Shown: positions 7,860 to 58,632, numbered from the stretch's first letter. The stretch is DNA of 64,000 nt from Ostreococcus lucimarinus (GCA_000092065.1 CP000581.1); one strand, 5' to 3'. Notes: a model not told the origin generated them from the sequence alone. Numbers and translations are program-made.

Positions 7860-7890
<31 letters not shown>

Positions 7891-8105: not shown

Positions 8106-8183
8106 TGACACACGCTTAATATTACATCACGAACTATTTTTTATGCTATTTCGTTTCGTCTCGATGCGCTGCATAATGAGAGA

Positions 8184-38223: not shown

Positions 38224-38370
38224 CGCACGGTATATATAATTTTCCTCGGTCGCGCATCTTTTGTATCATCAGTGTCACAAATATTCACCACATCGCTCCT
38301 CTCGCTCTTCGCGGTCGCCAGAGAAAAGTCGTTTGAAATCAAATTTCCCGCTCAAAATGCTTGAAACACG

Positions 38371-39967: not shown

Positions 39968-39969
39968 AG

Positions 39970-40716: not shown

Positions 40717-40739
40717 CTCGACGTCGAAGCGGACGCAAA

Positions 40740-41792: not shown

Positions 41793-41951
41793 CGCGGTAG
41801 CGATTGTTTTAATTGGGAATCATGTCAAATTCAAAGTTCTAATGTGGAAACGCGAACGTTTCGCTAAAAAGCGTGCTCTTGGAAGGATTGACGTCGCTCG
41901 TCGTCGAAGACGACGAAGTTGTAAATAAACCTCCCTTATCCCGCGTTTTTT

Positions 41952-42361
41952 TTACTTCCACCATGGAGGATTCTGGCCGGTCCGGAAGTCAGCTTCAGTC
42001 CACGGCGTAAACGTCACCACGTCGGAGTCCGTCACGACGACGTGGGCGAGGGCCAAGGAAAGTGGAGCCGGACCGCGAATCACCTTCCCGTCGGCGTTGT
42101 ACTGGGAGCCGTGGCACGGGCACTTGAACTTGTTCTCGGCCTTGTTCCACGGGACGACGCAGCCCAAGTGCGTGCACACAGCGTTCAACCCGAAGTCCGT
42201 GAGGGAACCATCTTGCTTGACGATCAAGTACGTGGCGTCACCCTTCAAGCCTTGCGTGAGCGAGTAGTCGCCCGGCAAGTGCGTCTTGAGCCATTCTCCC
42301 TTCTTGATGTCGTTACCATTCGCGTCCTTAGCCGGTTGACCGGCGCCGCCGCCGCCGGCGC
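41952..42361 (-). CDS. petC: Cytochrome b6-f complex Rieske iron-sulfur subunit (PetC), exon 2 (Gly hinge plus Rieske [2Fe-2S] domain)
   Basis: '[20 protein letters not shown]' hinge, '[46 protein letters not shown]' and the PetC-specific C-terminus '[11 protein letters not shown]'. The acceptor is 'cacag' preceded by a CTGAC branch-like site. Confidence 0.85.
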
Positions 42362-42736
42362 TGTGCGTTCAAAACAGTTTTATCCGTCAGTCTCCTCGCG
42401 TTGCGCGCACTATTGTTCAATCCAATCCCAAGAACGGCGTCGCGACCGTTTCGAATCGCTCCCTCAGCCCGATCGCCCGCCGCGAGGCGTCGTGGTAGAG
42501 TTTGAACTCTACGCCTGCGTCGACCGTGGCGAGATCGAGTGCCGTAGTATCGCGTGTGCTTCCCCTCCGCGCCACCGCTCTCTCGCGGTGGCGACGGCGC
42601 GGTCAGCGCAATCCATGGCGCCGCGTCCGGGTGTGGATAGATATCCCTGACCCTAGCCTAACGTTGTGCCGTCTCGCGCGATCGGATAGCGATCGCGCTC
42701 GTGGCGATCGCGACGCGCGCGCGTCGCTGTGCGCAC

Positions 42737-42978
42737 CTCGGGGGCACGAAGAAGTAGGCATAGCCGCCGATCAACGACGTCGCCGGCAAACCGATCGCAC
42801 CGACGAGCAGAAGGTTCATAACGCTTCGCTTCGTCATATCCGGCACGTCCGCGGATGCGCTCGCCGCGCGGGGCACGACCGTGCGCGCGCTGCGCGCGGC
42901 GTTGCGCTTGACGGGCGCGCGCTGCGCGCGCACGCGGGTGCACCCGAGTTTTTGGGTCGTCGAGAGAGAGAACGCCAT
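42737..42978 (-). CDS. petC: PetC exon 1 (transit peptide plus membrane anchor). A GT donor follows '...[10 protein letters not shown]'. The intron is about 375 nt (about 42362..42736).
   Basis: '[80 protein letters not shown]' matches the PetC presequence and the 'DVPDMxKR..MN.LL.GA' anchor. Confidence 0.8.
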
Positions 42979-43444
42979 GGTGTGTGCGACGATCACGCGC
43001 GCGAGTGACGCGCGCGACGTCGACGGACGTCCGCGGATGCACGCGGATGGCCCCGTCGCGGACGTCGATCGTCGATCGTCGATCGTTTTTGACCCGTGTG
43101 CGAAATCAATCACGTACATCACGGCATTCGAACGCCATGACGCTCGCGATCACGCGCGCGCGATAAAATCAATCCCGCCGCGACGCGCGTCCGACAGTCC
43201 GAGCGCCCGGTCGTCGCGCGCGGGGACGGACGTCGCTCGACGTCGCCCGGCAGACGACGGACGTCCGCGCGGACATGGCGGGGCGATGGACGATCGAGGC
43301 GCGAACGTGACGAGGAGAGCGAAACAAAGCCGAAGCCGGGCGACGACCCGGTGCGGCGCGGTCCGAGGGGCTGCCAATCGCGGCGACGGCTCGGGCGACC
43401 GAGCGCCCGCCATTGCGGGAGCGGATTGAAACAAACAATCCCGA

Positions 43445-43474
43445 CGCGTCTTGACGCGTCTTGACGCGTCTTGA
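43445..43474. promoter_or_regulatory. Three tandem copies of the 10-bp unit ACGCGTCTTG (MCB/MluI-box-like ACGCGT core), immediately upstream of the ARL GTPase start
   Basis: 'acgcgtcttg acgcgtcttg acgcgtcttg acgcgcgcga' is seen directly. Its function is an inference. Confidence 0.3.
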
Positions 43475-44094
43475 CGCGCGCGAACGCCCGAATGGAAGCG
43501 GTGTATGAGATGATGGGCTATCCCAAGCCCAAACGCGTGGTCGTGCTCGGAATTCAGGGCGCCGGGAAGACGAGCGCGCTCGAACGCGTCAAGGACGCGT
43601 ACGACGCAAACGCCAGAGGTTTGCGCCCCGATCAAATCATATCCACTGTAGGGATGAACATAGCCAAGATCTCCAATGCCGAACTCAACGTGGAGCTCAC
43701 GTTCTGGGATCTCGGCGGCGCGTTCGGGCTGCGTGGGATTTGGGAGAGCTATTTCCAGGACGCCGACGCGTGCTTGTACGTCGTCGACGGCGCCGAAGAG
43801 CGAGCGCTGGAGGAGTCCATGGTCGAGCTTGAGCGCGCCATGCGCAACAAACGATTCTCAAAATCGATGCCAATCCTCATCATCAGCGCGAAGAGCGATT
43901 TGAGCGGTCCCGAAGGGTTGGAAATGGTTCGCGCGTCGTGCGAAGACGTCTTCGCGCGCGTCGACGGCGGCGGCTCTCGGCGTCAGACCCGCGTGTTCCC
44001 GGTCGATTGTCGCACGGGACTAGGGGTAAAACCCGCGATCGAATGGCTCGCTCGCGCCCTCGCGCCGTCTTCGTCGCTGTTTAGTTTGTCATAG
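43471..44094 (+). CDS. Atypical ARF-like small GTPase. The likely ATG is near 43492 (MEAVYEMMGY...).
   Basis: G1 'GIQGAGKTS'. G3 'WDLGGA' has Ala where the catalytic Gln is expected. G4 'ISAKSD' is Ala-Lys-Ser-Asp where NKxD is expected. Confidence 0.7.
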   Translation: MTRANARMEAVYEMMGYPKPKRVVVLGIQGAGKTSALERVKDAYDANARGLRPDQIISTVGMNIAKISNAELNVELTFWDLGGAFGLRGIWESYFQDADACLYVVDGAEERALEESMVELERAMRNKRFSKSMPILIISAKSDLSGPEGLEMVRASCEDVFARVDGGGSRRQTRVFPVDCRTGLGVKPAIEWLARALAPSSSLFSLS

Positions 44095-44309
44095 CGCGTC
44101 CCTGGCGCGGTGTAAAATTTCTCGTCTCAGTCTCTCGGTCGCTTCGACGTCCGTGTTTAGCTCCCTGATGTGGATAGCGTTCCGTTGGATTTTCGCGGTT
44201 CAGGAACGGCGAGACGGACCGCGACTCGTGTTGACGCCATTTGTTCGCGCGCGCGGCGCCGCGTCGCTCGCGTCGTCGTCGTGAATTGCGACCTTGATCG
44301 TTTGATCGA

Positions 44310-45482
44310 GTGCGCCGCGTAGCCATGGTGTCTGTCGCCGTCGCTCGTCCGCGCGTCGCGCACGCGTCAACACACGCGCGCGAGCGGCGTCAACGCGCGA
44401 GCGGCGCGAGACGCTCGAACGCGCCGCGCGCGTTTTTGGCGTCGTCGACGGCGGTGCACGCGAACGATGCGTCGTCGTGCGCGATGCTGAAACGCGCGAG
44501 TTGGAGAGGTAAATATGCGCTGAATGTGCGCGCGTCGTCGACGTCGAGCGCGTCCGAAGTGGCCGATCGCAACGGCGCCGACGGTGGCGGTGAAGCCAAC
44601 GGGTCGGCGACCACCGGCGCGGGAACCTCCTTCACCGCGCTTGACGATTCGTTTCGCGGATTAGAGGGCACAGAATGGTTTTCGCGTGATTTCTCCGAGA
44701 GTGGCAGACGATTCAGTGAGGTTTTTCCCGTGAGATTCGCCGAAGTGGGTTCCAACGGCGAGGCGACCATGGTGACGATAGCCGACTTGATTCAAGAGTG
44801 CGCCTGCAATCACGCGCAAGGTATCTGGGGTGTCGGTCAATCTATGCCGGCGGAGATGGCGCGAGCAAACTTGGCGTGGGTGTGTACCAGACTTCACTTG
44901 CGCGTGCGCAAGTACCCGAAATGGGGGGAGAAGGTTGCGGTGAGCACTTGGTTCGAACCTCAAGGGAAGATAGCGGCTAGGCGCGACTACGCCATCACGG
45001 ACGCGCAAACTGGAGAATGCATGGGCGAAGCGACGTCGCAATGGGTTGTGTTTAATCTCGGGAGTCGAAGAATGGCGCGCATCCCGAACTCGGTGTTGGA
45101 AGATTTCAAATTCCAATCCTTGCAGCAACAGGTGATGGAGGAAGGATACGCCGCGGATAAGCTCCCAGACGTGTCTGAAGTCGGGGGAGCGTGCGCGGCT
45201 CCCATCACGCATAACGTGCGCCGTAACGACATGGATATGAACGGACACGTAAACAATGTCGTGTACGTTCAATGGCTACTCGAGAGCGTGCCCCCGGAAA
45301 CGTGGGAAAAGCACGTGTTGAGTGAAATTATCTTGGAGTATCGATCCGAGTGCAACTTTGGCGACAGCGTCACGGCGACGTGCTGCGAGATTGAAGAGGC
45401 AAACGATACCTACGTGCTCCTACATAAATTAGCGCGAGGCGAGGGTGAAATAGTTCGAGCAAAGACGGTCTGGAGGAAGTAA
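44310..45482 (+). CDS. FAT: Acyl-[acyl-carrier-protein] thioesterase (FatA/FatB type) with a plastid transit peptide
   Basis: Double hot-dog acyl-ACP TE: 'IADLIQECACNHAQ...ANLAWVCTRLHLRVRKYPKWGEKV' and 'RRNDMDMNGHVNNVVYVQWLLESVP'. Confidence 0.85.
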   Translation: MRRVAMVSVAVARPRVAHASTHARERRQRASGARRSNAPRAFLASSTAVHANDASSCAMLKRASWRGKYALNVRASSTSSASEVADRNGADGGGEANGSATTGAGTSFTALDDSFRGLEGTEWFSRDFSESGRRFSEVFPVRFAEVGSNGEATMVTIADLIQECACNHAQGIWGVGQSMPAEMARANLAWVCTRLHLRVRKYPKWGEKVAVSTWFEPQGKIAARRDYAITDAQTGECMGEATSQWVVFNLGSRRMARIPNSVLEDFKFQSLQQQVMEEGYAADKLPDVSEVGGACAAPITHNVRRNDMDMNGHVNNVVYVQWLLESVPPETWEKHVLSEIILEYRSECNFGDSVTATCCEIEEANDTYVLLHKLARGEGEIVRAKTVWRK

Positions 45483-45611
45483 AGACAAAGTAGCGCGAGC
45501 GATAATATCTCGGCGGTGGCGAAGCATCGAACGACGTGTAAATGAAAATAGCAAACGACGCGACTGCGCATTCCTTCGCCACACATCACCACTTCGCTAC
45601 GCGCGGCGACC

Positions 45612-47444
45612 ATGTACCCACGCGTGGATGCCTCAATAGCCCTGTCGTGCGTCTGCGTGTTCTCATTGTCGGTACTCGCGCTCGCTGTCGAGTGTGTTGG
45701 AGACTTTGTGAACGACGTCGAACGACTCGCACAGTGTGAGTCCGTTGCTGGTGGCAACCTAACTTTCTCCAGTGTCGACGAAGTCATCGGACCTCGATTG
45801 CGTTACATCACCAATGGATCGATCATCATCACAAACGTGTCTAATTCATCCATTCTATTTCCACGCCTGTTGAGCGTTCACGGTGGCTCCGTGCGTGTTC
45901 ACGACTACGGCGGTCGGTTGAAGCGTCTCGAAGGATTTCATGCGCTTGAATTGATTGAGGGAGATCTTGAGATTTCTGAGGCCCCAAACTTGACTGGCTG
46001 GGATGCGTTCACGTCGCTGTCGCGGGTCACTGGAAGTGTGACGCTGAAAACGCTCGCAATTGCGACGGTGGGGCTTCCATCTCTCATGGATGTGGGCATA
46101 TTCACAGCTCGCGGTTTGCCTGCGCTCAACTCGCTCAAAGGACTCGAAAATCTTCGTTCGGTGAGAAAACTAGAACTGGACTCCGAATACGAATCATGGT
46201 CGTTCGGTGAGTGTGGATCGATAAACGTTACCGCCACGCCGCCAGTGCGAAACGTGTGCAACGACTCGCACATGACGTGCGTGGATAATCGATGCGTTGA
46301 AACGCTCTTGTCGACGCTCGCAAACGCGATAGAAGTTCGAACATTTACGTCGCTCGTTCTTCACGATGAACTCTATAGTCGGCGATTTCAGACTATATCG
46401 GGACACGCGATGACGACCGTGTTCGCGCCGAAAGACATAGCCTGGTACCATCGAAACTTGACGACTCCCGCTCGCGCGACCGCAGCAGAGCGCTCCGATA
46501 TCATCGCGGCGCACGTGGTAATGAGCTCTTCCAATCATGCGCTTCGACATGGTCAGCGCCTAATCACCGATTTGGGCGTCAAAGAGGTAATGGTGAGTGC
46601 GTCTTCTGACACTGTTGCACACTCGCTTGTCGCAATCGAAACGGGACGTCGTCGGATCGTGCTCGGCGGATTTCCGGTGAAAGAGACGCGTTGTAGAGTG
46701 TACGGTACCGCAACGTTTTTTTGGAAAGAGTGTCTACCATCCATGTACACGGAAATAATCGTAAAATCGTCGGATGCCCGACTAGGCGTGGAGAGCAAAT
46801 TTTCGCGCGCTGAGCAATCGATAGGACCTATATTTGCCTCACTCGAGAGCCGCGCTGATGGAGACGACGCGTTCTCGGAGGAAGACTTGGATTTCGAAGA
46901 AGAGTACGTGCGCGCGCTACTGTTTGACGAAATCATAGCGCCGTCGTCGTCATCGTCGTCATCGTCGTCCGCATTCGCGTCGAACTCGAACGTGCACGGC
47001 GCTATCGTGGATTCTGCTAGAAGATCATCCAACGGAATCGTACTCATCGTGGATGGAACCTTGTTTCCGAGAAGACTTGACAGAGTGCCTGCGCCGCAGG
47101 CAAACGGTTCGAGCTCGCCGATTCCATCGCGTCCACCGCCGACGCCGACGCCACAATTTTTGTCTCCACCGTCACCACCAGCTCAAAGACCACCGCCACC
47201 AATCCTTGGTTCATTCAATCCAATATATTGGCAAACACGCCCGCCGCCTCCGTCCGCAACTGCTGGAAGTGCGCGCGAGCCGCCGCCGTCACCACCTCCT
47301 TCAAAAGGCTCGTGCCTCGCGGTGCTTCCAAATATTTGCGGGCTGTGTGATTTCACGGACGACGCCGCACCGTGCTGCTGTGACAGTGAGTGCGCGCAAA
47401 CTGGAGATTGTTGTTCGGACTATGCCGTGGTCTGCCTGTCGTAG
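45612..47444 (+). CDS. Secreted multidomain protein: signal peptide, receptor-L-like (LRR beta-helix) domain, fasciclin (FAS1) domain, Ser/Pro-rich linker, and a C-terminal somatomedin-B-like Cys knot
   Basis: Signal peptide 'ALSCVCVFSLSVLALAVEC'. 'GNLTFSSVDEV...ITNGSIIITNVSNSS...LELIEGDLEISEAPNLTG' is receptor-L-like. 'TVFAPKDIAWYHRNL' is FAS1. 'CGLCDFTDDAAPCCCDSECAQTGDCCSDYAVVC' is SMB-like. Confidence 0.6.
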   Translation: MYPRVDASIALSCVCVFSLSVLALAVECVGDFVNDVERLAQCESVAGGNLTFSSVDEVIGPRLRYITNGSIIITNVSNSSILFPRLLSVHGGSVRVHDYGGRLKRLEGFHALELIEGDLEISEAPNLTGWDAFTSLSRVTGSVTLKTLAIATVGLPSLMDVGIFTARGLPALNSLKGLENLRSVRKLELDSEYESWSFGECGSINVTATPPVRNVCNDSHMTCVDNRCVETLLSTLANAIEVRTFTSLVLHDELYSRRFQTISGHAMTTVFAPKDIAWYHRNLTTPARATAAERSDIIAAHVVMSSSNHALRHGQRLITDLGVKEVMVSASSDTVAHSLVAIETGRRRIVLGGFPVKETRCRVYGTATFFWKECLPSMYTEIIVKSSDARLGVESKFSRAEQSIGPIFASLESRADGDDAFSEEDLDFEEEYVRALLFDEIIAPSSSSSSSSSAFASNSNVHGAIVDSARRSSNGIVLIVDGTLFPRRLDRVPAPQANGSSSPIPSRPPPTPTPQFLSPPSPPAQRPPPPILGSFNPIYWQTRPPPPSATAGSAREPPPSPPPSKGSCLAVLPNICGLCDFTDDAAPCCCDSECAQTGDCCSDYAVVCLS

Positions 47445-47708
47445 TACAGTAGAAGAGATCTGAATTAGAGCAAAGTCAGTCGCGTGCGGTTGAGCGGATC
47501 GCTTGCTTTCGGAAAATGCGTTTTGTCGTCTCATGCGTCCTTTCGAGGACGGAATATGCTGATTTCATCGATCGCACAGCCTAATTACCAGCGCACAACC
47601 GTCATCTAGCGATACTGATCATCAGTGGGTCATCATTAACGTCGCGTTTGCTCGAGTTGTCGTCCCCTCGCTTCCCGCACCTTGGATTTAAAATATTTGA
47701 ACCGACCG

Positions 47709-50030
47709 CTACTTTTTATACTCGTATTCGATGCGCAAACGCCGCTCCGTTCCCTCACCGACGGCGCTATGACTTAGCATGTACGTGTCCACCAACGCCT
47801 GTTGCATTTCGATGATGCGTCCCGATCGAGGCAATAGCTCGACAGGCTCGCGATGGGGAATGACGAGCTGCTCGACGGCCATGCGCACCTCTTCCAGGGC
47901 ATCCGTTTCATCCGCGCTCGACGTAGTCGCTCGCTGTCTATTTTCTTGAGCACCACTTCCTCCGTTAAATCCATCACTTGCACCCGTTATGCCTAACATG
48001 GCTTGCAAAGCGCGAACGAGCTGCGCCGAGTTATCTGCCCGCACGGCGTAAATCGGCATACCTCGCGCTCTAGCCGCGTGTCGTAGCCACGTGGACGTCT
48101 TCACTTGCGATTTTGGCGCAATGACCACGCTCGCGTCTTCAAGAAGGTCAACCAAGCACACTCGATCACCCAAGTCCATGCTCTCCATGACGCGCTCCAG
48201 AGCGTCGCGACTAACTTTGAACGGAAACACTCGAAGAGCGTGCGGAGGGCACGTGTTGTCGTCTTCGTCGTCTTCGACGTCGTTCACGATGACGTCTTCG
48301 CCGCCGAGTTCGAAACGCGTGTTATCCACAAACTGTTGCGTCGTCGACGATGATCGACGTCGCGATGCGCTTGCGATTTCTAAAGCCGCGAGCTCAGAGC
48401 TCGATCGAGGCTGGACTTTTTGCGCCGTCGGTCGAGGCGCCGTCGCGTCGTACGCTAGGATTTCTCCAAGAACGCTCGCCTTTCGGCGACTTGTGTACTC
48501 TGCCTCCGTCGTCACCGTTCCATCTTCGTTCAGAACGCGTAGTTCGGTCATCGGCGACTGCCCCGCGAGTAAAGCGTCGACAGAAGCCGCGACGTCGGTG
48601 TGAACTCTCCAAGTGCCGATGTCGAGCATTTCCACGGCGATGGTAAACGTTGGTGGACCCGCCCTTTCGAGCACACTCTTCTGGACCCCTCGTCTACGTG
48701 CTTCGTCGTCGCCAAGAGTGACGCTCACAACACCACCTATCAAATCACATAACGCCGGGTTCTTCAAAACGTTCTCCAGCGTGTGTCCGTGCGCCGTACC
48801 AATCATCTGCACGCCTCGCTCGCTGATGGTTTGCGCTGCGTCCGCCTCTTGCTGCGTGCCGATTTCATCAACCACCACCGTCTGGGGCGTGTGATTTTCC
48901 ACGGCTTCGATGAGCACGAGATGCTGTTCGCTCGCGTTCGGGACTTGCATTCGACGGGCACCACCTATACCGCGATGGGGAACGTCGCCGTCGCCCCCGA
49001 TTTCATTTGACGTATCAACGATGACGACACGGCGAGAATGCTCATCCGACAGAATGCGAGAAATCTCTCGAATAGCCGTCGTTTTTCCTACACCAGGCCG
49101 TCCGAGAAGTAGTATCGAATTATTAAACGTCGTCACCGACGTTTCGGCGTCCAAAACGTCCCTGATAAGTTCGGCAGAACCCGAGATCGCGCGTCCGACT
49201 CGACACGTCGCGCCGATGACTTTGCCGTAACGATTCTTAATCGCGCTTATTCTGTGCAAAGTCCCGTTGATACCCGCGCGATTATCTCGTCCGACGTCTC
49301 CAACCTTTGTCATCATTCTATTCAAATCTTCGTACGTCACGAGCTCGTCCCCGATTGTGGCATCGCCGTCCGGAAACCGCGCCTTTGGTAGTCTTCCCAA
49401 GTCGAGCACGACTTCGGTGAGCTCGAGCCTTCGCGCGTCTTCCGCCAACGCCCGTCGCACGCGCTCGGGCGCCGCGTCGAGCAATAGCGCAATTTCTTTT
49501 TCGCTCGTCACCGCCGCCAGCGTCGCTCGCTTTCGAGCGGCGAGCACGTCCTCCTTCGTCAACGCCAACGCGCCCGCGCTCGAGGACGTCGACGTCGCGT
49601 CGTCGGCGTCGTCGACGGCGTCGCGCCGCGTCGCGCGCCGAGGGCTGGCGCGGCGCCATCGCGCGCTTCGTCGTCCCTTAGTCCACCCGTCGCACCGCGC
49701 GGACGCGGACGCGGACGTCGACGTCGTCGTCGGCGCCCCCCGCATCGCGCGTCGCCGTGTGTCGCGGCGTCCCGCGCGCGCTCGGACCGCCGGACCGCGG
49801 GCACGAGGCACGACTGACTCGCGCGCGTCACAACGCGCGCGCGCGACGAAGGCGACGCACCGACGCCTCGATCGCGTCGTCGGCGTCGTCGTCGAAGTCG
49901 CCGTCGCCATGGGCTCGCCCGGCGGACGCAGCGCCGTCGTCATCGCGTGCTGGTACACCGCCAACGTCGGCGTGCTGCTGCTGAACAAGTACATCTTATC
50001 CGTGTATGGGTTCCGATTCCCGGTGTTCAT
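47709..50030 (-). CDS. Ycf45-like / SpoIIIAA-family R3H-domain P-loop (AAA) ATPase with an S/T-rich plastid-type presequence. The start is probably the internal Met near 49910 or further downstream.
   Basis: 'LLLGRPGVGKTTAIREISRIL' Walker A, 'VVVDEIGT' Walker B, 'QMIGTAHGHTLENVLKNPAL', and R3H-like 'VTYEDLNRMMTKVGD'. Confidence 0.75.
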   Translation of the reverse strand: MNTGNRNPYTDKMYLFSSSTPTLAVYQHAMTTALRPPGEPMATATSTTTPTTRSRRRCVAFVARARCDARESVVPRARGPAVRARAGRRDTRRRAMRGAPTTTSTSASASARCDGWTKGRRSARWRRASPRRATRRDAVDDADDATSTSSSAGALALTKEDVLAARKRATLAAVTSEKEIALLLDAAPERVRRALAEDARRLELTEVVLDLGRLPKARFPDGDATIGDELVTYEDLNRMMTKVGDVGRDNRAGINGTLHRISAIKNRYGKVIGATCRVGRAISGSAELIRDVLDAETSVTTFNNSILLLGRPGVGKTTAIREISRILSDEHSRRVVIVDTSNEIGGDGDVPHRGIGGARRMQVPNASEQHLVLIEAVENHTPQTVVVDEIGTQQEADAAQTISERGVQMIGTAHGHTLENVLKNPALCDLIGGVVSVTLGDDEARRRGVQKSVLERAGPPTFTIAVEMLDIGTWRVHTDVAASVDALLAGQSPMTELRVLNEDGTVTTEAEYTSRRKASVLGEILAYDATAPRPTAQKVQPRSSSELAALEIASASRRRSSSTTQQFVDNTRFELGGEDVIVNDVEDDEDDNTCPPHALRVFPFKVSRDALERVMESMDLGDRVCLVDLLEDASVVIAPKSQVKTSTWLRHAARARGMPIYAVRADNSAQLVRALQAMLGITGASDGFNGGSGAQENRQRATTSSADETDALEEVRMAVEQLVIPHREPVELLPRSGRIIEMQQALVDTYMLSHSAVGEGTERRLRIEYEYKK

Positions 50031-50907
50031 GACGCTGTGTCACATGTGCATGTGTTCGGTGTTATCCGCGGCGGCGAGAGAGTTTAAGATCGTGCCGAAA
50101 CAGTTCATACGGACGAGGCGACACTACGCCAAGGTGGCGGTGCTGGCGGTGACGTTTGCGCTGTCGGTGCTGGGAGGAAACGTGTCTCTGAGGTACATTC
50201 CAGTGAGCTTCAATCAAGCGTTGGGAGCGACGACACCATTCTTTACGGCTATTTTTGCGTATCTCATGCTGCGTAAGAAGGAAACGACGGCGACGTACAT
50301 GACGCTCATCCCCGTCGTCGGGGGCATAGCCGTGGCGACGTGGGGCGAGCCGAGTTTCAATTTTATTGGGTTCTGCGCGTGCCTCGTCGGGGTGTGCTGT
50401 CGAGCGTTAAAATCGGTGTTACAAGGATGGCTACTGACTCCAGCGGGGGAAAAGGAGGCGGAGAAAATGTCCAACTCGAACGAGAACAAGCTCGACAGTA
50501 TGTCGCTTCTGTACTACATGTCGCCGGTGGCCATCGTGACGCTCGGAATTTGCACTTTCATCATGGAACCAGACGCAATATCGGCATTTTATGACGCGGC
50601 TGAGATGAATCCGCCATTCATTGCCATTCTCTTAGGAAACTGTTTCGTGGCGTATCTCGTCAACCTGACGAATTTTCTCGTCACGGCGCACGTCGGCGCG
50701 CTTTCGCTTCAAGTTCTCGGCAACGCGAAGGGCGTCGTGTGCACTATCGTTAGCATCATGCTCTTCCGTAACCCGGTGACGTTTCGCAGCGTAGCTGGAT
50801 ACACGATTACTATGGTCGGTGTTTGGCTTTACTCGTCGAGCAAGCGGCGTAGCGCCCGTTTGCAGGTCATCGAGAACGCCAACAAAAACTTAGCCTCAAA
50901 GGTGTAG
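49909..50907 (+). CDS. Triose-phosphate-translocator/DMT-family sugar-phosphate or nucleotide-sugar transporter. The track ORF 49267..50907 is N-terminally over-extended and the real start is the Met at about 49909.
   Basis: 10-TM DMT topology. 'GNVSLRYIPVSFNQALGATTPFFTAIFAYLML' is the TPT/KT signature. Confidence 0.75.
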   Translation: MGSPGGRSAVVIACWYTANVGVLLLNKYILSVYGFRFPVFMTLCHMCMCSVLSAAAREFKIVPKQFIRTRRHYAKVAVLAVTFALSVLGGNVSLRYIPVSFNQALGATTPFFTAIFAYLMLRKKETTATYMTLIPVVGGIAVATWGEPSFNFIGFCACLVGVCCRALKSVLQGWLLTPAGEKEAEKMSNSNENKLDSMSLLYYMSPVAIVTLGICTFIMEPDAISAFYDAAEMNPPFIAILLGNCFVAYLVNLTNFLVTAHVGALSLQVLGNAKGVVCTIVSIMLFRNPVTFRSVAGYTITMVGVWLYSSSKRRSARLQVIENANKNLASKV

Positions 50908-50992
50908 CGCGATGATTCTCTTCCTGTTACTCGTTCTTTGCGTGTCGTTTCACTTGTATTTCGGTCTTCTAAAGGCGCGAGTCTAAATACTC

Positions 50993-51262
50993 GATTCTAA
51001 AGGCGCGAGTAATCTAAGCTTTCGTCGTCTGAAGACGCTTCGAACTCGCGTTCGTACGCGCGTGAGCCGTTTCCGTAAGCGCGCGGCGCTTCGTCGGACT
51101 CCTCATCGCTCGAGCCATGCCGCGACGATCCAGCCGATGTCGCCATCTTCATACGCGCTGTAGCGCTTTCCACTCGCGACCGCTGACTATGCACTCGCGC
51201 AACACACGACCTCGCGTCGGCGTCGGCGTCGAGCTCGTCGCGCGAATCATCTCGAGGGTGCC
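50993..51262. repeat. Inverted, near-identical (about 270 bp, one indel seen) copy of the extreme 3' coding end of the voltage-gated channel gene (63723..64000+). It lies in the convergent 3' intergenic spacer between the TPT-like and 2OG/Nudix genes.
   Basis: The reverse complement of 50993..51262 matches 63727..64000 block by block. The track ORFs 50997..51194(-) and 51117..51302(+) duplicate the channel C-terminus and its antisense 63688..63888(-). Confidence 0.8.
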
Positions 51263-51281
51263 ATCATCGTCTTCTACACGC

Positions 51282-53426
51282 TTACACGCTTCTACCTTCT
51301 AGACGTTCTAGACGTGCGAGAACGCGCGCGGTGGACGAACGATTGAATGAGCTGTGTCGAAACTCGACTTCGTGTACGGCATGGTCGGTGAGCTCGCCTT
51401 CGTCGCCTGAGAAATCGAAATGCCCAATGACGAGCGATTCGTCGACACCGTCGTGTTTCGAAAAGCGTCCCAACACGATGGGATACCATATCGCGTCGTC
51501 CTCAGGCATATCTGCATACGGTATTTCTTGTTGTTGAAACCACGTCGGAATGATGTCAGCTGACGCGCGCGCGTGAGTTGGAAACAACTTCGCGACGCTC
51601 GTGCCGTCGCGAAACGCGCACACAAATTCGTGCTCGACGGCGAGACCACCATCTGGCATCCAACCGCGAAATACGAAGCGCGCGGCTTCAAAAAGATCTT
51701 TCGGATCGTTCAAAGCATCGCACGCCAAGGGGTTGAGACCTGCTTCCTCTAGTGCGACGGACCGAGCGACGTCCAGTGGGACTAAATCCTTCTCGCTGTC
51801 GACTTCGGCGATGAAGCCGGTGTAGCGGCCGGCGAATTCGCCGCGCGTGTGCTTCCCCAGCAGGATGCGACCGTTGGCGACGTCCAAAACGAGAAGCTGA
51901 GCAAAACGCTTTGGCGGTCTCGTAAGCTCTGATTTCGGGTACACCTGCTTGTCGATCATATCGGCGAGGTTGTCGCTGGCGCGAGTGACGTTTTGTCCGA
52001 CGTGATCGCCTTGTGTCCGCGGTTCGTACGCTGCATTCAACGGACGATGCGGAGTGACAAACTGTGGAAGTGGCGCAATGACGGCGTCGTCGTTGAGACC
52101 GTTGAATCTCACGAGCGATAATCGATCTCGTCCATCGCGAGATGGTCGAACGCGATGCGGCGTCGCGCGTACGACTCCGTTTGTAAAAATCTCGAAAGCG
52201 TCCGACAGAATGCACGTAAAAATGGCCTCATTCTCGTACGCCGGCGCCGAGCGCCACGCACCATCTCGCCCTTGGAGCTCTAATCCTTCGCACGTCTGAT
52301 GAAGAAGTGTGAAGAATTCAAAGTCTGTGTGCTCCGAGATACCAACTATTTCCACTTTCGACGCGGCGATTCGTTCGCTGCGTCGCGTAGTCGAGTCCTC
52401 CTCGTTCGCTTCGTCATCCACTTTCATCGATGGATATCGCATTGCGCGCATGCTGCAGTGTGACGTATTGCCAAATTTCTTTACCCAGACGTCTTCGTCG
52501 TCGACGTGAAGCGCCTTCGCAAAGCATCGATACAGCGTCCTCGCCGCGCCATCGCACGCGCTGTAAAAACTGCAAAACGCACTTTGCATCGCGGGCACCT
52601 CCACCGGCCAATCCATAGGTCCAAGTCCTCGTGCCGCGTCGTCACCTCGTTCGTCTCGCACTTGCTCAATCTCACATGAGCTCAACTCTCGAACGACATC
52701 AAACGACTCGACGAGCGCGGCTGTTTTCTTTTGGTAAGAGTACTCTTCCAGCAGGGGCACGAAACCACCGCTCTCGTTCGCGTATTGCGAGTGTACGTAC
52801 AGCGCCTTCACGTCTTCTGGCAGCGAGAAGAACGTTCGGGCGATGTCGTACGTGCGCGCGACGTCGAACGGCGCGACGCGCGACGTTGACGCCTCGCCGA
52901 CGTCTCGAGCGTCGAGCTCGAAGTAACCGACACGCTCGCTCGACGTCAGCGCTTCACCCAGACGCGCGATTTCGACGTCGTCGCCGTCCGCGAGCTTGAT
53001 GAGAGATACTCGCGGCACGCTGTCGCTCGCGTGCATGACGCGACGAGCGATCGAACGAGGAGAGTCGTCGCTCACGTCGTCGTGTGACGCGCCGATGCAC
53101 GAAAAACTCCTCACACGACGACGTGGGCGACGACGAATCGAACGACGACGAATCGCGAGCAAGATGACGAACGCGACGAGCGAGCGAGTTATTGGCGTCG
53201 CCCACGACGTGCTGCCACAACGAGCGAAGAAGAAACCGCGACGAGACACAGCGATGACGGAGAGGACGGCTTCGACTTCTTCGGCGGCTGAGGCCGACCC
53301 GACGCCGCTGACGACGGACGATGAGGACGTTCGACGGGGATTCGAAAGCACGGACGCGCGCGTCGTGCGATACGCGCCAGAACACGATGACTTTCGAGCG
53401 CGCGAGGACGAAGACGAAGACGACAT
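51282..53426 (-). CDS. Fusion protein: N-terminal 2-oxoglutarate/Fe(II)-dependent oxygenase (DIOX_N plus 2OG-FeII_Oxy) and C-terminal NUDIX hydrolase domain. The likely true start is near 53066 (MHASDSVPRVSLIKL...).
   Basis: 'HTDFEFFTLLHQ...RATPHRV' (HxD...H facial triad, RxS). Nudix box 'GKHTRGEFAGRYTGFIAEVDSEKDLVPLDVARSVALEEAGL' (Gx5Ex7REVxEExG). Confidence 0.7.
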   Translation of the reverse strand: MSSSSSSSRARKSSCSGAYRTTRASVLSNPRRTSSSSVVSGVGSASAAEEVEAVLSVIAVSRRGFFFARCGSTSWATPITRSLVAFVILLAIRRRSIRRRPRRRVRSFSCIGASHDDVSDDSPRSIARRVMHASDSVPRVSLIKLADGDDVEIARLGEALTSSERVGYFELDARDVGEASTSRVAPFDVARTYDIARTFFSLPEDVKALYVHSQYANESGGFVPLLEEYSYQKKTAALVESFDVVRELSSCEIEQVRDERGDDAARGLGPMDWPVEVPAMQSAFCSFYSACDGAARTLYRCFAKALHVDDEDVWVKKFGNTSHCSMRAMRYPSMKVDDEANEEDSTTRRSERIAASKVEIVGISEHTDFEFFTLLHQTCEGLELQGRDGAWRSAPAYENEAIFTCILSDAFEIFTNGVVRATPHRVRPSRDGRDRLSLVRFNGLNDDAVIAPLPQFVTPHRPLNAAYEPRTQGDHVGQNVTRASDNLADMIDKQVYPKSELTRPPKRFAQLLVLDVANGRILLGKHTRGEFAGRYTGFIAEVDSEKDLVPLDVARSVALEEAGLNPLACDALNDPKDLFEAARFVFRGWMPDGGLAVEHEFVCAFRDGTSVAKLFPTHARASADIIPTWFQQQEIPYADMPEDDAIWYPIVLGRFSKHDGVDESLVIGHFDFSGDEGELTDHAVHEVEFRHSSFNRSSTARVLARLERLEGRSV

Positions 53427-53904
53427 GCGAGCGCGAAGAGGAGTGCAATACGCTTATAAAGACCACACGGCTGACATTCAGATACACGCCTGGGGATGCG
53501 ATCTCGCTGAAGCCTACGCCTGGGCCGCGCTGGCGATGTTTGATTACATGACCCCGCTGGAGGACTGCGCTCGAGTGCGGACGACGCGATTCAAGGAAAT
53601 ACGCGCGAGCGGGCATGATTTAGACACCTTGCTCTTCGCATTTCTCGACGAGCTTTTGTTCACGTTTCACACAGAGATGCTCATATGCACGGCGGTGCAA
53701 GTTTGCGAGTTCAATCGAGACGAATGGAGTATTCGAGCAGTTGTGGGCGGGACGACGTTCGTCGACGGTGAGACGCGTCAAGGCACGGAGATTAAAGCCA
53801 TCACATACAGCGCGATGAAAATCATAGAACGAGGCGAGATTAGCAAAGACGATGAAAGCACCGGAGTACATCGCGCAGAGTTGTTCGTCATCGTTGACAT
53901 TTAG
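53425..53904 (+). CDS. Archease (RtcB tRNA-ligase cofactor). The track ORF starts at 52996, but the protein almost certainly starts at the Met near 53425 (MRARRGVQYAYKDHTAD...).
   Basis: 'YAYKDHTADIQIHAWG', 'LLFAFLDELLFTF', and the C-terminal 'GTEIKAITYSAMKI...ELFVIVDI' match the archease family end-to-end. Confidence 0.85.
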   Translation: MRARRGVQYAYKDHTADIQIHAWGCDLAEAYAWAALAMFDYMTPLEDCARVRTTRFKEIRASGHDLDTLLFAFLDELLFTFHTEMLICTAVQVCEFNRDEWSIRAVVGGTTFVDGETRQGTEIKAITYSAMKIIERGEISKDDESTGVHRAELFVIVDI

Positions 53905-53947
53905 AACGCACACACGTCGTAGTTTAGCAGCATCTATAATACAATTC

Positions 53948-55426
53948 TCAACCGAGCCACTCTTCGATGGTCGCCTTCGGTTCGCTGAAGACTAAATCAT
54001 CTTTAGTCAGCGGTAAAGACTCTTCCACGAGCTGCACAAGCTGTCTTCGCAGAGCCATCGTTAGCGCTGGCTGCCGAATCGAAGCGTTGAGCTCGACAAA
54101 CTGCCCGAGCGAACGTTGCTTCAAGTTGCAGCTCCCCAACATCCCGAAATCCGCCACGGATTCGTCCTCGCTCTCCGCGTACAACACCTTGGCGTGCAGC
54201 ATGTCGTCTATGAGAAATATTTTCAAGTTGTTCGAGTCACCGCTTCGCCGCGACGCGTTCACGTCGACCAGTCGTTTGAGCGCCTTGCGATTTGCGTCGT
54301 GATACACGTTCGGCGTTCGAGGGACGATGAGCGTGAGTGACGCGTCGCGTCGCCTCAACATTTCGGCGAGCATATCCGCTCCCATGGAATCAATGTAGGC
54401 CATCGCGACGGAATATTTCGAGTACCTGGTGTCTCGAAGTAACTGCTTCATCGCTTGCTTCACCTCGAAACGCCCGGGAAAGGTCATATATCTAGGGAAA
54501 GTCCAGGCGATTGGAGACCAGCCCGTCGGTAGATTACTCGCAAAAACGATATCTGCGTCGTCGTTCGACGTAATTGTGCGCTCGAAGCTTCCCAATGCAT
54601 ACCGCATGGCGTCCACAGCCGCTCGACCATCCGCTCTAATGGCGAAATCGCGCCAATTTGTAAATCTATCGCCGACGTTGACGCCGCCGAATATAACCGA
54701 CGGCAATCCGGTGCCGTGTTTTCGCTCGACAATCATGAACTTTGCGTGCGTCGCTTGCGAAACCGGTGTGAACGAAAAATGCTCCGCCCCGAGTTCTTCT
54801 TGTAGCGCTTCTAACTCTGCCGTTAACGTCGTCGTCCCTTCGCACCATCGCGTGAACTTGCTCACAACGGAACCGTCCACAGAGCACTTCACGCGCACGC
54901 CTCGCTTGACCGCTCTCTTCATCGCCGCGACGACTTTGTCGCTCGATTTCCCGCGCTCGAACACGTACACGCTGAACTCTACGCTATCGCCCTTACTCGT
55001 CGTTCCAAGTTCACGACACAACGCCTCGACGACGTCGACATACGACGTGAGTAACCGCAGCGGTCTCGCCTTGACCACGCGGGCGCCTTCGTCGAACGAC
55101 CCCGACGACGAGACGTCGTCGTCGAACGAGCGCGATGCCGATCGCGAGCCTGCAAACGAACGACTTCCGACGCGATGGTTTTCTACCGTCGGCGGCGCGC
55201 GGCCGCGCTGCGACGTCTCCGCCGCGTGCGCTCGCACACGATGCCGCGTTGCCGCGTCGCCCCGTCTTCGCGACGCGCGCGTCGACGCGCGCGACCTCGG
55301 ACGTGCGCGAGGCACGATACTCGCGGCGATGCGCGCCGACATCGACGACGCGCACCGCTCGCGCCTCGCGCCTCGCTCTCGGCGGCACGAACGACGCGAC
55401 GCGTTTTGGCGTAACCAACCAACCAA
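53948..55426 (-). CDS. Phospholipase-D-superfamily enzyme with two HKD motifs (cardiolipin/phosphatidylglycerophosphate-synthase-like). Arg-rich presequence.
   Basis: HKD-1 'HAKFMIVERKHG...GGVNVGDRF'. HKD-2 'HAKVLYAESEDESVADFGMLGSCNLKQRS'. Confidence 0.8.
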   Translation of the reverse strand: MVGWLRQNASRRSCRRERGARRERCASSMSARIAASIVPRARPRSRASTRASRRRGDAATRHRVRAHAAETSQRGRAPPTVENHRVGSRSFAGSRSASRSFDDDVSSSGSFDEGARVVKARPLRLLTSYVDVVEALCRELGTTSKGDSVEFSVYVFERGKSSDKVVAAMKRAVKRGVRVKCSVDGSVVSKFTRWCEGTTTLTAELEALQEELGAEHFSFTPVSQATHAKFMIVERKHGTGLPSVIFGGVNVGDRFTNWRDFAIRADGRAAVDAMRYALGSFERTITSNDDADIVFASNLPTGWSPIAWTFPRYMTFPGRFEVKQAMKQLLRDTRYSKYSVAMAYIDSMGADMLAEMLRRRDASLTLIVPRTPNVYHDANRKALKRLVDVNASRRSGDSNNLKIFLIDDMLHAKVLYAESEDESVADFGMLGSCNLKQRSLGQFVELNASIRQPALTMALRRQLVQLVEESLPLTKDDLVFSEPKATIEEWLG

Positions 55427-55597
55427 AGATACGCTCGCGCGCGCGGGAATTTCAGCGCTTTATTTTGTTGCAGAGGTGAGGTTGGGCGGTGCGGATATCA
55501 TATCGTACGGCGGTGACGATATCGTGCGATAAGAAATGCGAGATGACATCTACGTCTCATAGAATACAAAGAAAGAATCATGCGCTGCTAAAATCGA

Positions 55598-56230
55598 CTA
55601 CGCCGCCGTGCCGTCGGCCAAACTCTGGCGGAGGTTTCGTAAGATCCTCCGCGACGCTCCGGCGAGCTCGCCCGGGATTTCGTTTTCGGCGTCCTCTTTC
55701 GCAACGCCCGCGTTCGCGAGTGCATTCCTTCCCTTTAACTGTAAAACTCCACCCTCCCTATCGTTTTCACCGAGACTTAGGCTCGTGAGATTGTACGCCT
55801 CGTCGAACGCCTTGGCCTCGGCGGCGCCTCCTTCGTGTTTCGTCAGCGCGGTCCGGAGACCGATCACGGACGCGCGCAAAAGGCGGTTCTCCACCTCGAG
55901 CGCGGCGTTGGATTCGCTCAAATCTATGATCACCTTATCCCGCACCTCCTCCGTCCTCGTCGCACCGCGCGCACCGATTTCACCTTTTATTCCCTGTCCA
56001 TCGCGGCCACCGTTCGCGCGCTGATTCCTTCGCGTCTTGGCGGGCGTGAAGTCGTTCGCGGTGAGCAAGAGAAAGAAAAACACGAAGAACATGATGTACC
56101 CACGCTGCGCGTTCGCCGCACGCGGGTCCGTCATCACCGTCATAGCGACGGAACGCGAGCAGCTCCACTCAATGTCGATCGACTGGCACTCTTCGCCCCT
56201 TCTCACTCGCCCACGCGGGCGACGACGCAT
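55598..56230 (-). CDS. Possible type-II membrane protein with a coiled-coil. The real start is probably an internal Met (MTVMTDPRAANAQRGYIMFFVFFFLLLTAN...).
   Basis: Hydrophobic anchor 'IMFFVFFFLLLTA' followed by heptad-like 'AALEVENRLLRASVIGLRTAL'. Weak. Confidence 0.3.
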   Translation of the reverse strand: MRRRPRGRVRRGEECQSIDIEWSCSRSVAMTVMTDPRAANAQRGYIMFFVFFFLLLTANDFTPAKTRRNQRANGGRDGQGIKGEIGARGATRTEEVRDKVIIDLSESNAALEVENRLLRASVIGLRTALTKHEGGAAEAKAFDEAYNLTSLSLGENDREGGVLQLKGRNALANAGVAKEDAENEIPGELAGASRRILRNLRQSLADGTAA

Positions 56231-56310
56231 TCGCGCTTTCTGACTCAGTAAGCCACACGCTGCATGTTGTCGTTGCGTGCGTTTAATAATACTACAGGAC
56301 TAAGGTATAT

Positions 56311-58518
56311 CTATGGCGCCGCGTCTCGTTTCGTCGCTCTCGCCTGTATGTTTTTCGTCAACTCGGCTTGAATCTCGATCAATTCGGCGTTCATGCGCGC
56401 AATGTGCTGTCTTCGCAGTTCTTCCGTTTCAAACGACCCCTTCATAGCCTTGCGGACGCTTTCAGGAGTGTTGTCTCGCACCAAAGGTACGATTGAATCT
56501 CCAATGGCGTCCTCTAAAGCTTCGTACGTCGGCTTCCAAGGCGCCGGCACGGCGTCGTCGAGGCGACTCTTGAACCGTCGGAGCTTGGGCATGAGCGGCG
56601 GCGCCGCCTCCTCGATATTCATCTTGATGGTCTCGAGTCGCTTTTTGAGTTGTTTCATTCGCTCCACTTCGTCAAGCGTCGCTTCAACGCGCATAATTTC
56701 CTGCTGAATCTTAGAGAGTCGGCTCGCTTTGTCCTCCTCGGTAGTCAAGAGCGCGACGTCGTCGGGCTTGCGTCGCACGAGAAGGCGCACGATGCGCTCT
56801 CGAACGCTCTTTCTCCCAGACTTGAGGTCGTTCTGCCTCGCCACATACCTGCGAACCGCACGTCGACGTTTCTGAGTACCTCCGCGCGCGCTCTGTAGCG
56901 CTCTCGTCAGTTCTTCCTCCTCCTGGCGCTTCTTCGCTAACGTTTGGATGTCCATCGGTCCGTCTGTGAGAATGGTGAATCGCCCCTTTGGAATCTCCTT
57001 GAAGTTCTTGTTTACCACGCGCTTTTCACGGTCCAACGCAGCGTACGCAGCGGCATCCAAAGTGCCTGAGTTGGAGATGGACGCACTCGCTCGCGCTGAC
57101 GCCCATTTCCGCTTCTCGTACGATACAACTCGCGTCGTCGGACCGGGCAAGCCGCTCTGTCGGCGGAGCGTGTTGCGCACTTGGCGACTCAGATTCCCCA
57201 CGGCCGGTCCGCCGCAAAAGTAAACCCATGGAATCCACGTGGGGATTCCAAGGATATCTGGATGAGAGTACGAATACAGATGACCGTAGTTGATCAACAC
57301 GATTTCCGCCACGGGCCCGCACACCGCGGTTAAACTAGCCATGAACAGTCCCTGCGCGCTGTTGTCGAAGAAATACCACGTCGTCACCGCCCATACGCAC
57401 AAAAATATATCAATCAAATGGTACGGCAGGAAACCATCCACGAAGGGCGATTGCGGCGACGCCAAAATTCCAGAGACGAGGTATTGAAACGCAAAGACGC
57501 TGATGCACAGATTGACGCTCACCCAGCTCGGCTGCCAACCCAAAGCGGGCTTGCCTTTTGCATTTTCAATCAACTCTGACGTCCTACTCACGATTTGTTC
57601 GGTGCCTTGGAGACCTTTTCGTATCTCAATCTCTCTCGCGCGCTTCACCGACGAGCGAATGCGAAATTCATCGAGACTTGTGTGCCCGAGACCGATGACG
57701 ATTGCCGCGGCGCCAAACAGCGGTGGCACCCACCACCCAGTCTCTAAAACACCATTTTCGTTCACAAACATGATTCGAAACAGGTCCTTCACCGGTTCGG
57801 GGGCTATGAAATTCATGATTGGACCGAACGGCGAGTTCCACAACGGTGCGAATAGGGCATCAAAATGAATTTGCAACGGCGTCGCGTAGTGCAACACGTC
57901 GAATCGCGAGTGTTGGTGGTCGAGTAAAGGCCCCAATATTGCCCCCGCCACGAACATCAACGCCACTTCGTTCGCGAACGCGACGCGCTCGCGCTCGACT
58001 TCTTCTTCCACGATCTCTGGCGTCATCGCCGGAGCGCGTCCCGTGACACCGGCCAACGCATTTCTCTTTCCGTCGTCGCCGTCGCCGCCGTTCGTCGACG
58101 TCGCCGTCCCGCTCGCCGGAGCACCTCCCGTCTTCACGACGCGCGACACCACGCGCGCGGCGTCTTGTCGACGCGATAACGCTTCCATCTCTTCCTCTCG
58201 CTTCGCGCGTTCTCTCGCGCGTCGCTCGCTCTTCGCATTCGTCGTCGACGACGCCGGCGTCGGCTCGGATGTCGCGCGCGCGACGACGCGCGCGCGGGCG
58301 TCGTCGCGCGCGCGACGTCGCGCGCGCGCGTCGGCCGGCGCCGAGACCGCGCGCGCGACGACGCCCGCGCGCATATTCGCTCGAACCCTCGCTCGCGGCG
58401 CGTCGCGTCGCGCACTCGCGTCGCGCGGCGCGCGCGCACCGACCAACGGCTGCGGACGCCCGCTCGGGGCGCGGAACGTTCGTCTCCGAAAGGGCGCATT
58501 GACGATGGCGAACGCCAC
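56311..58518 (-). CDS. INSIG-domain membrane protein with a plastid-type transit peptide and a long C-terminal coiled-coil / basic extension
   Basis: Transit-like 'MAFAIVNAPFRRRTFRAPSGRPQPLVGARAPRD'. INSIG-like 'TGWWVPPLFGAAAIVIGL' and 'YSYSHPDILGIPTWIPWVYFCGGPAVGNLSRQV' (compare human INSIG1 'SAWWVPPCCG', 'YQYTSPDF...IFFAGGITMGNIGRQL'). C-terminal 250 aa are helical and K/R/E-rich. Confidence 0.7.
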   Translation of the reverse strand: MAFAIVNAPFRRRTFRAPSGRPQPLVGARAPRDASARRDAPRARVRANMRAGVVARAVSAPADARARRRARDDARARVVARATSEPTPASSTTNAKSERRARERAKREEEMEALSRRQDAARVVSRVVKTGGAPASGTATSTNGGDGDDGKRNALAGVTGRAPAMTPEIVEEEVERERVAFANEVALMFVAGAILGPLLDHQHSRFDVLHYATPLQIHFDALFAPLWNSPFGPIMNFIAPEPVKDLFRIMFVNENGVLETGWWVPPLFGAAAIVIGLGHTSLDEFRIRSSVKRAREIEIRKGLQGTEQIVSRTSELIENAKGKPALGWQPSWVSVNLCISVFAFQYLVSGILASPQSPFVDGFLPYHLIDIFLCVWAVTTWYFFDNSAQGLFMASLTAVCGPVAEIVLINYGHLYSYSHPDILGIPTWIPWVYFCGGPAVGNLSRQVRNTLRRQSGLPGPTTRVVSYEKRKWASARASASISNSGTLDAAAYAALDREKRVVNKNFKEIPKGRFTILTDGPMDIQTLAKKRQEEEELTRALQSARGGTQKRRRAVRRYVARQNDLKSGRKSVRERIVRLLVRRKPDDVALLTTEEDKASRLSKIQQEIMRVEATLDEVERMKQLKKRLETIKMNIEEAAPPLMPKLRRFKSRLDDAVPAPWKPTYEALEDAIGDSIVPLVRDNTPESVRKAMKGSFETEELRRQHIARMNAELIEIQAELTKNIQARATKRDAAP

Positions 58519-58590
58519 GTCACGTCGCGCGCAACTTCACTCGCGCAGGTCAGGTGACACCGTCCGCGGCGCGTCCGCGGCGCGCGATCG

Positions 58591-58594
58591 ATGG

Positions 58595-58632
<38 letters not shown>

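Follow-up and report, generated by a model that had tools for sequence, protein, structure and literature searches.

An inverted copy of a channel-gene end in Ostreococcus lucimarinus as the probable inner tip of a larger inverted duplication near a chromosome end

A frameshifted copy of a channel-gene end in a convergent spacer

The window that we analysed is a 64,000-nt stretch of DNA from Ostreococcus lucimarinus (GCA_000092065.1, CP000581.1), a plastid-bearing, intron-poor eukaryote with ~59% GC and TTTAGGG telomeres. Its right-hand end is occupied by an ORF encoding a four-domain voltage-gated cation channel (Pfam Ion_trans), the nearest named relatives of which are oomycete channels (27% identity). 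The window stops just short of the end of this ORF, the intact stop codon being predicted at 64006-64008. A preliminary description of the window had expected the channel to end in DYSRL* about 8 nt beyond position 64000, and this agreed both with near-identical full-length proteins (P0001, P0032 and P0045; P0001 is 100% identical over the query, and it and its cluster members end in ...DYSRL) and with contigs from ten samples (L001-L010).

A TPT-family transporter gene and a 2OG-Fe(II) oxygenase gene (2OG) converge on a 374-nt 3' spacer, and it is within this spacer, as first described, that an inverted copy of the channel's C-terminal coding end is found (Table 1). The oxygenase gene had also been credited with a Nudix domain, for which we obtained no match at E <= 0.01. 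Gapped local alignment paired 51005-51271 with 64000-63733 at 267 of 268 positions with one 1-nt gap, in keeping with the near-complete identity and single indel noted at the outset; the positions originally assigned to the two copies (50993-51262 and 63727-64000) were about 10 nt off, while the repeat itself is real. A repeat search resolved the same match into arms of 201 nt (51005-51205 and 63800-64000, 100% identity) and 69 nt (51206-51274 and 63730-63798, 99%). Since its BLAST E-value is ~1e-139, the inverted repeat is not a product of chance. As the window breaks off the right arm at 64000, it contains no partner for anything to the left of 51005.

The copy beside 2OG, designated R-psi, is a truncated, dead version of the last ~91 channel codons. 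It retains a copy of the stop codon at 50997-50999 and has neither a start codon nor upstream coding sequence, and the alignment gap (T at 63799 is unpaired, the corresponding base being missing after 51205) puts it out of frame. The 65-aa ORF at 50997-51194(-) had been reported to reproduce the channel C-terminus, and its translation does contain "...SSDDESLDYSRL"; it is a frameshift-shortened remnant and not a gene. The spacer also holds a 16-nt direct repeat, TTCTAAAGGCGCGAGT, the second unit of which includes the last channel codons and the stop (...SRL*); because this direct repeat is also present 3' of the intact channel in other contigs, it must be older than the duplication.

Between the two copies of the channel tail lies a block containing 2OG, archease-like, PLD-like and INSIG-like genes, a 210-aa ORF and the channel body, and the repeat search found no second copy of this block in the window. 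Leftward of R-psi, the stretch that we discuss below as an arm carries TPT, the Spore_III_AA/PTPase-like gene, a 610-aa ORF and genes for an acyl-ACP thioesterase, Arf, PetC and others.

Two other observations concern the window at large. The histone H4 gene at 2991-3305 (-) has an inverted 103-nt copy (96% identity) of its last ~34 codons and stop at 3452-3554 (+), 358 nt away, making this a second truncated inverted 3' coding end in the window. ARAGORN called a tRNA-Ala(cgc) at 28055-28148 (+) and a tRNA-Ser(cga) at 52852-52939 (-), the latter within the coding sequence of 2OG; since the window has no Rfam tRNA match at the gathering threshold, the two calls are probably spurious.

Table 1. 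Positions of features at the locus (window coordinates unless a contig is named)
Feature	Position	Strand	Remarks
Rest of documented arm	36409-50907	.	Followed in contig L042, from the window's own strain; second copy predicted
Spore_III_AA/PTPase-like gene	47709-49811	-	In left arm
TPT-family transporter gene	49909-50907	+	Stop 50905-50907
Native convergent TPT/channel 3' spacer and copied stop codon	50908-50999	.	Read as part of the duplicated arm, not as an insertion
16-nt direct repeat TTCTAAAGGCGCGAGT	50968-50983 and 50996-51011	.	Inside TPT-channel spacer
R-psi, truncated dead copy of channel tail	51000-51271	-	From alignment and ORF; pairable part 51005-51271
H2 junction microhomology, GTC on + (GAC on gene strand)	51269-51271	.	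Common to native 2OG 3' flank and channel tail
Single-copy spacer, 12,461 bp	51272-63732	.	Once per contig holding it; inverted relative to H1
2OG-Fe(II) oxygenase gene	51282-53036	-	Stop 51282-51284
INSIG-like gene	56311-58374	-	In single-copy spacer
Channel body	from ~58.6 kb	+	In single-copy spacer
Original channel tail	63733-64000	+	In frame with channel body; start of the predicted second arm, leaves window
Sister-species repeat copies	L026 606-677 and 10846-10921; L027 2245-2340 and 5045-5140	.	Derived from channel 3' UTR

Three arrangements of one chromosome end

Searches started from the 2OG and INSIG-like genes and the channel tail, followed by a census of junctions, recovered three arrangements (H1, H2 and H3) in one species-level population with 99.3-100% nucleotide identity. 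H1 has the order Spore_III_AA-like(-), TPT(+), channel(-), INSIG-like(+), PLD-like, archease-like(-), 2OG(+), a flank that we call Y, and the chromosome end. It has a single copy of the channel tail, with TPT convergent with the channel, and no copy beside 2OG, the flank of which (GTAGAAGAC|CTAGCTTGTATTGCC...) is the unique sequence Y, up to ~155 nt long. This arrangement is complete on six contigs (L030 and L033-L037, in records of 32-108 kb), of which L033-L037 are k141 MEGAHIT or JGI contigs and L030 is a 32-kb long-read-style contig ("contig_30346").

The chromosome end beside 2OG is hypervariable among H1 strains. In L037 a (TTTAGGG)n telomere directly follows Y, ~155 nt past the 2OG stop; in L020, which covers the 2OG end only, the telomere lies ~190 nt further out, ~400 nt past the stop. 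L033, L035 and L036 pass into a subtelomeric family at a TTTAGGG-like motif, and L034 does so after only ~56 nt of Y; at the point used in L033, L035 and L036, contigs L011 and L030 instead carry part of a HAT/Syf1-like gene. The chromosome-end positions on these contigs are 11769-12165 (L020), ~17220-17384 (L037), 11088-12195 (L011) and ~17660-18620 (L030). In L011, a 99-kb long-read-style contig, identity to the window is only 92.7% in the channel-to-archease block (1-8939), where gaps are numerous and genes fragmented, against 99.5% over 2OG (8917-11087); this could reflect sequencing error or a divergent or introgressed block.

H2 is the arrangement of the window. Its junction, ...GTAGAAGAC|GATGATGGCACC..., leads from the 2OG flank into the inverted channel tail and on into inverted TPT, and Y, the telomere-side flank, is absent. 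Besides the window, 13 independent samples have this junction, two of them Tara Oceans assemblies, and on three contigs (L029, L032 and L038) it occurs together with the intact channel. The 1-nt deletion in the copy is polymorphic among H2 contigs; the copy is frameshifted in the window, L013, L016, L017, L038 and L042 and intact in the others. H3, represented by L031 (the same contig as L023), has the junction GTAGAAGAC CTAGCGTGTATTGCCGGTCGACGCAGCG|TCTTCAGACGACGAAAGC..., where 2OG is followed by 28 nt of Y, an AGCG microhomology, the last 38 nt of the channel coding sequence and TPT. Because it keeps Y sequence that H2 lacks, H3 is an independent event with the same architecture, and we rejected the idea that it is a deletion derivative of H2. 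Y, which is common to all H1 variants and partly kept in H3, was taken as ancestral on the reasoning that a truncated coding fragment can derive only from an intact gene.

Both derived junctions show short microhomology. For H2 the parental sequences are ...GTAGAAGAC|CTAGCTTG in the H1 flank and ...AGCGACGAC|GATGATGGC in the channel, with ...GTAGAAGAC|GATGATGGC at the junction, and the 3 nt common to both parents place the breakpoint within or next to 51269-51271. For H3 the shared sequence is the 4-nt AGCG. Among random inverted junctions in the window sequence, microhomology of at least 3 nt arose with a frequency of 0.069 and of at least 4 nt with a frequency of 0.025. With a single tail in H1, neither event could have drawn on an inverted repeat that was already there. 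Less than 230 nt separates the H2 pairing site from that of H3, both being 12.5 kb in from the end, a closeness that random microhomology does not account for.

Sequence outward of the two copies and competing explanations

The preliminary description treated the copy as an isolated fragment of ~270 bp lying in the spacer 12.7 kb upstream of the channel end, which did not hold up: the identity runs beyond ~270 nt, and the repeat is missing in other strains. In L001-L010 the channel stop is followed by ~90 nt, then by TPT on the opposite strand and by the Spore_III_AA-like gene and its neighbours, all of it the reverse complement of the window from 51271 down to 41021 (99.5-99.9% identity). Since these contigs match there, the sequence to the left of 51005, spacer and TPT included, is native channel downstream DNA. 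The stretch 50908-50999 likewise follows the intact channel in L022 and L033-L037, and contigs L022-L025 and L029 continue past the channel stop as the reverse complement of window positions 51004 and below. Contigs of the same strain and of more than 20 metagenomes extend the identity outward through the spacer, TPT and beyond. Contig Ga0206682_10000344 (50.8 kb; L019, L022, L028 and L029) covers the window from 47173 to 64008; past that point it matches the opposite strand of the window, from 51004 leftward to 41000 and farther. Its channel-attached arm (L022) is read directly over at least 10.3 kb, and the extent of the contig implies ~34 kb; over 4,100 nt the arms of this contig show 100% identity (L029), although in a metagenome the assembly may have passed twice through a single collapsed edge.

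For the window's own strain we used two read sets, SRR1179203 and SRR23274481, whose k=31 contigs are 100.000% identical to the window and which we assumed to be clonal. Contigs L039 (SRR1179203) and L040 (SRR23274481) both cross the 2OG|repeat junction from the spacer side and end exactly 30 nt (k-1) into the repeat, and L042 (SRR23274481, k=31) begins exactly at the inner boundary, 51271, with the same 1-nt deletion as the window. L042 then proceeds unbranched for 14,863 nt to ~36409, being 100.000% identical to window 51271-37709 in the part that was compared, and ends at a (TTCG)10 microsatellite (36390-36428). As the k=31 graph branches at the inner boundary, both junctions are present in this strain; as it is unbranched at the 2OG|Y position, the strain has no H1 end; and as there is no branch over the next 14.9 kb, nothing but arm follows either copy. 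Arm lengths of 14.9-34 kb mean that no branch was seen, and not that two copies were read directly, because short-read graphs collapse identical arms.

Taken together, the 268-nt copy is probably the inner tip, or junction, of a larger inverted duplication that surrounds 51272-63732 and has arms no shorter than 14.9 kb. The second arm would lie outside the window, where other assemblies of the same strain and species point to it. The outer end of the duplication and a capping telomere were not found among the contigs examined. Contig ends do cluster at ~36.4 kb, at (TTCG)10, and at ~17.0-17.6 kb, in (GAC)n low-complexity sequence, and we considered these clusters as the outer boundary and rejected them as generic assembly breaks, H1 contigs also breaking near 17 kb. 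One scaffold ends near 30.65 kb, where no obvious repeat is seen. Recurrent contig ends in both haplotypes coincide with (TTCG)10 and with the (GAC)n/(GCC GTC)n coding runs at 17286-17352 and 58581-58657. Two further sites, at 47147-47201 and 53386-53442, have polymorphic indels or duplications by which the alignments of several contigs are broken or offset: near 47.17-47.20 kb L014 and L018 are longer by ~100-140 nt, 47173 is where the Ga0206682 contig begins, and L023-L025 have a ~57-nt overlap or duplication at 53386-53442.

The main rival is a simple inversion of the terminal 12.46-kb block, in which ~0.3-0.5 kb was duplicated by filled-in staggered breaks at the two breakpoints; unique sequence or a telomere would then lie just past the right copy, and the second arm in metagenomes would be owed to co-assembly with H1 genomes. 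In its favour, 51272-63732 does have the opposite orientation in H1, and in a sister species (~90% nucleotide identity) contig L026 has the window's gene order with a (TTTAGGG)n telomere ~490 nt past the channel stop. It may be added that L023-L025 end only 87-227 nt past the repeat, and that short-read assemblers can mis-path through repeats. However, L042 runs outward from the inner boundary unbranched for 14.86 kb in the very graph that breaks exactly at that boundary. Moreover, each of the 14 contigs that extend past the intact channel stop leads into inverted TPT, four of them having the H2 or H3 junction as well, and no contig of the junction census joins the channel tail to unique sequence; the junction of Y with the tail that an inversion predicts was never seen. 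A duplication left by staggered breaks should be confined to the breakpoints with unique sequence outside, whereas here identity extends outward of both copies. We therefore regard a simple inversion as unlikely.

Far less probable still is that the copy is a retained functional element, either a shared terminator or polyadenylation module for 2OG or TPT (the preliminary description had listed a shared 3' element), or a trans-antisense regulator of the channel, in which a TPT read-through transcript would be complementary to the 3' end of channel mRNA. Its position is suggestive, as the transcripts of both neighbours must end in this convergent spacer, and the sister species has diverged (84-88%) copies of the channel 3' UTR in its 2OG-TPT and 2OG-archease spacers. 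The copy is nevertheless absent in H1, reduced to 38 nt in H3 and frameshifted in the window, its indel is polymorphic, and TPT already faces the same sequence in H1, so that H2 brings nothing new for TPT. DNA folding revealed no excess of secondary structure in the spacer (z = +2.1 versus shuffles), and an Rfam scan of the window gave 0 matches.

We give hardly any credence to an assembly artefact, that is, a mis-join or hairpin contig in the source such that one tail copy is not in the genome. Inverted repeats and palindromes are a classic source of chimeric contigs, and the right copy does stop at the window edge, but the 51271/51272 and 63732/63733 junctions are reproduced in 13 independent samples, different assemblers agree on them (MEGAHIT k127 and k141, JGI, SPIRE scaffolds and Logan k=31), the contigs of the two read sets are identical to the window across the 2OG|repeat junction, and the copies differ by an indel within the window itself. 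Since the parents share only 3 nt, the junction cannot arise from k-mer overlap. The artefact that had been listed among the initial explanations was accordingly dropped.

Two further candidates were rejected: recombination between pre-existing inverted repeats, given the H1 arrangement with one tail copy and none beside 2OG, and a transposon or retrocopy, no target-site duplication, terminal repeats, poly(A) tail or mobile-element gene being visible. The edges of the copy consist of the 3-nt microhomology with the 2OG flank on one side and continuity with native channel downstream DNA on the other.

Origin of the arrangement and comparison with known systems

We consider it likely that the arrangement arose by erosion of a chromosome end followed by repair through an inverted duplication, formed either by fold-back or by sister-chromatid fusion. 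At this locus we find inverted copies, a single-copy spacer, loss of distal sequence relative to H1, and short microhomology without a long pre-existing repeat; as to whether the arms are twofold, there is no branch over 14.86 kb in the k=31 graph, where identical arms collapse, and an arm of at least 10.3 kb in L022. Other outcomes are seen at the same chromosome end, namely telomere addition or subtelomere capture at different points of Y (L020, L033-L037 and L011/L030). The recent segmental duplication offered in the preliminary description was right in kind, the duplication being a long inverted one that is polymorphic among strains. Gene conversion, also offered there, may help to keep the arms identical and does not explain their origin.

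If repair took this course, the ancestral end would have been that of H1, running from the interior through TPT(+), channel(-), INSIG-like, PLD-like, archease-like and 2OG(+) to ~155 nt of Y and (TTTAGGG)n. In the H2 lineage the end would have been lost to a point 13 nt past the 2OG stop (Y+0), and in the H3 lineage eroded to Y+28. The exposed 3' end in H2 would then have paired through GAC with a site 12.46 kb inward, in the last exon-like part of the channel gene; for H2 and H3 together, pairing 12.2-12.5 kb inward could have been with the same strand (fold-back) or with a more deeply eroded sister chromatid. Synthesis or ligation from the pairing site would have added an inverted second copy of the channel tail, TPT, the Spore_III_AA-like gene and onward, to give a product consisting of arm, truncated tail copy, 12,461-bp single-copy spacer, intact tail and inverted arm. 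The tail attached to the channel body (63733 onward) would be the original, and the 2OG-side copy (51000-51271) new, functionless and decaying. Fold-back copying toward the centromere would be expected to leave an unstable dicentric. Against this stands the wide geographic range of H2, for which some later resolution must be assumed; no dicentric intermediate or breakage-fusion-bridge product was observed here. What the sequences display directly is the pair of junctions, the alternative haplotypes, the H1 telomere, the microhomologies and an arm continuous over at least 14.9 kb, whereas the order of these events, the choice between fold-back and sister fusion, and how and where the new arm ends are inferred. 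The direction from H1 to H2 is not polarised by the outgroup alone, because the sister species has 2OG beside TPT.

The sister species carries related scars. Its contigs L026 and L027 differ in that the archease-to-channel block is inverted, with a 76-nt inverted repeat (88%) of channel 3' UTR origin on either side of it, and the 2OG-TPT spacer of L027 holds yet another copy of this UTR, the third, which has diverged to 84.5% identity. Judged by their sequences, L026 and L027 look like inversion isomers generated through the inverted repeat, unlike H1 and H2. A more speculative reading, which we think improbable, is that the channel 3' end at the TPT boundary is a recurrent re-priming site, so that cycles of erosion, fold-back and healing flip or re-copy a terminal cassette of ~12 kb. 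It is hinted at by the closeness of the two independent junctions (H2 and H3) and by the sister species' two diverged 3' UTR copies at other junctions and its pair of inversion isomers. Were it true, subtelomeric variation in structure and expression would be generated from a hotspot, possibly under selection, in a wild picoeukaryote.

In the window's strain, TPT and its neighbours are probably present twice. The gene order here is not trustworthy without long reads, because assemblies collapse, break or mis-orient the 12.5-kb block. More broadly, one chromosome end of an abundant marine picoeukaryote offers a natural allelic series in public metagenomes: telomeres added at several points, capture of subtelomeric sequence, and inverted duplications formed through microhomology on at least two independent occasions. 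Work on such events usually relies on yeast mutants, tumours and patients; here they can be traced in wild populations from existing data. The arrangement is a new natural example of a known rearrangement class and not a new kind of element, nor is the mechanism new.

Large genomic palindromes, such as those of the primate Y chromosome and of Tetrahymena rDNA, are kept identical by arm-to-arm gene conversion, and the Tetrahymena palindrome forms at a new chromosome end by way of a short inverted repeat. The present arrangement resembles them in having near-identical arms around a unique spacer and differs in that nothing here points to programmed formation, to amplification or to conversion still in progress; a recent origin may be all that lies behind the identity of the arms. 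In Drosophila inversions, staggered breaks leave inverted duplicates of breakpoint sequence at each end of the inverted block. That model needs unique sequence outside both copies, whereas in the present case no branch interrupts the identity over at least 14.9 kb outward.

According to two studies of yeast foldback-inversion rearrangements (Li et al. 2020, PMC7467729; Putnam et al. 2014, PMC3974649), these arise when a hairpin in a single-stranded end primes an inverted copy, and a broken end may alternatively be healed by de novo telomere addition, the two pathways being in competition. As in those accounts of S. cerevisiae, inverted-copy and telomere-addition outcomes are both seen at one chromosome end here; unlike the events they describe, which are selected in mutant backgrounds and use short-loop hairpins, the loop here would be 12.5 kb. 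With a loop of that length, unequal sister-chromatid fusion fits at least as well as fold-back.

The closest architecture is that of human fold-back inverted duplications, 21 of which have been sequenced, with spacers of 766-70,466 bp and 2-8 bp of microhomology at 13 junctions (Hermetz et al. 2014, PMC3907307). Like these constitutional "inv dup del" rearrangements, which adjoin terminal deletions (PMC3907307), the present one has inverted arms around a normal-copy spacer (12,461 bp), short inverted microhomology where the spacer meets the inverted arm (3 and 4 nt), and loss of the sequence distal to the spacer (Y and the telomere). Unlike the human cases, which are de novo and pathogenic, it is a natural and geographically widespread polymorphism of a unicellular marine eukaryote.
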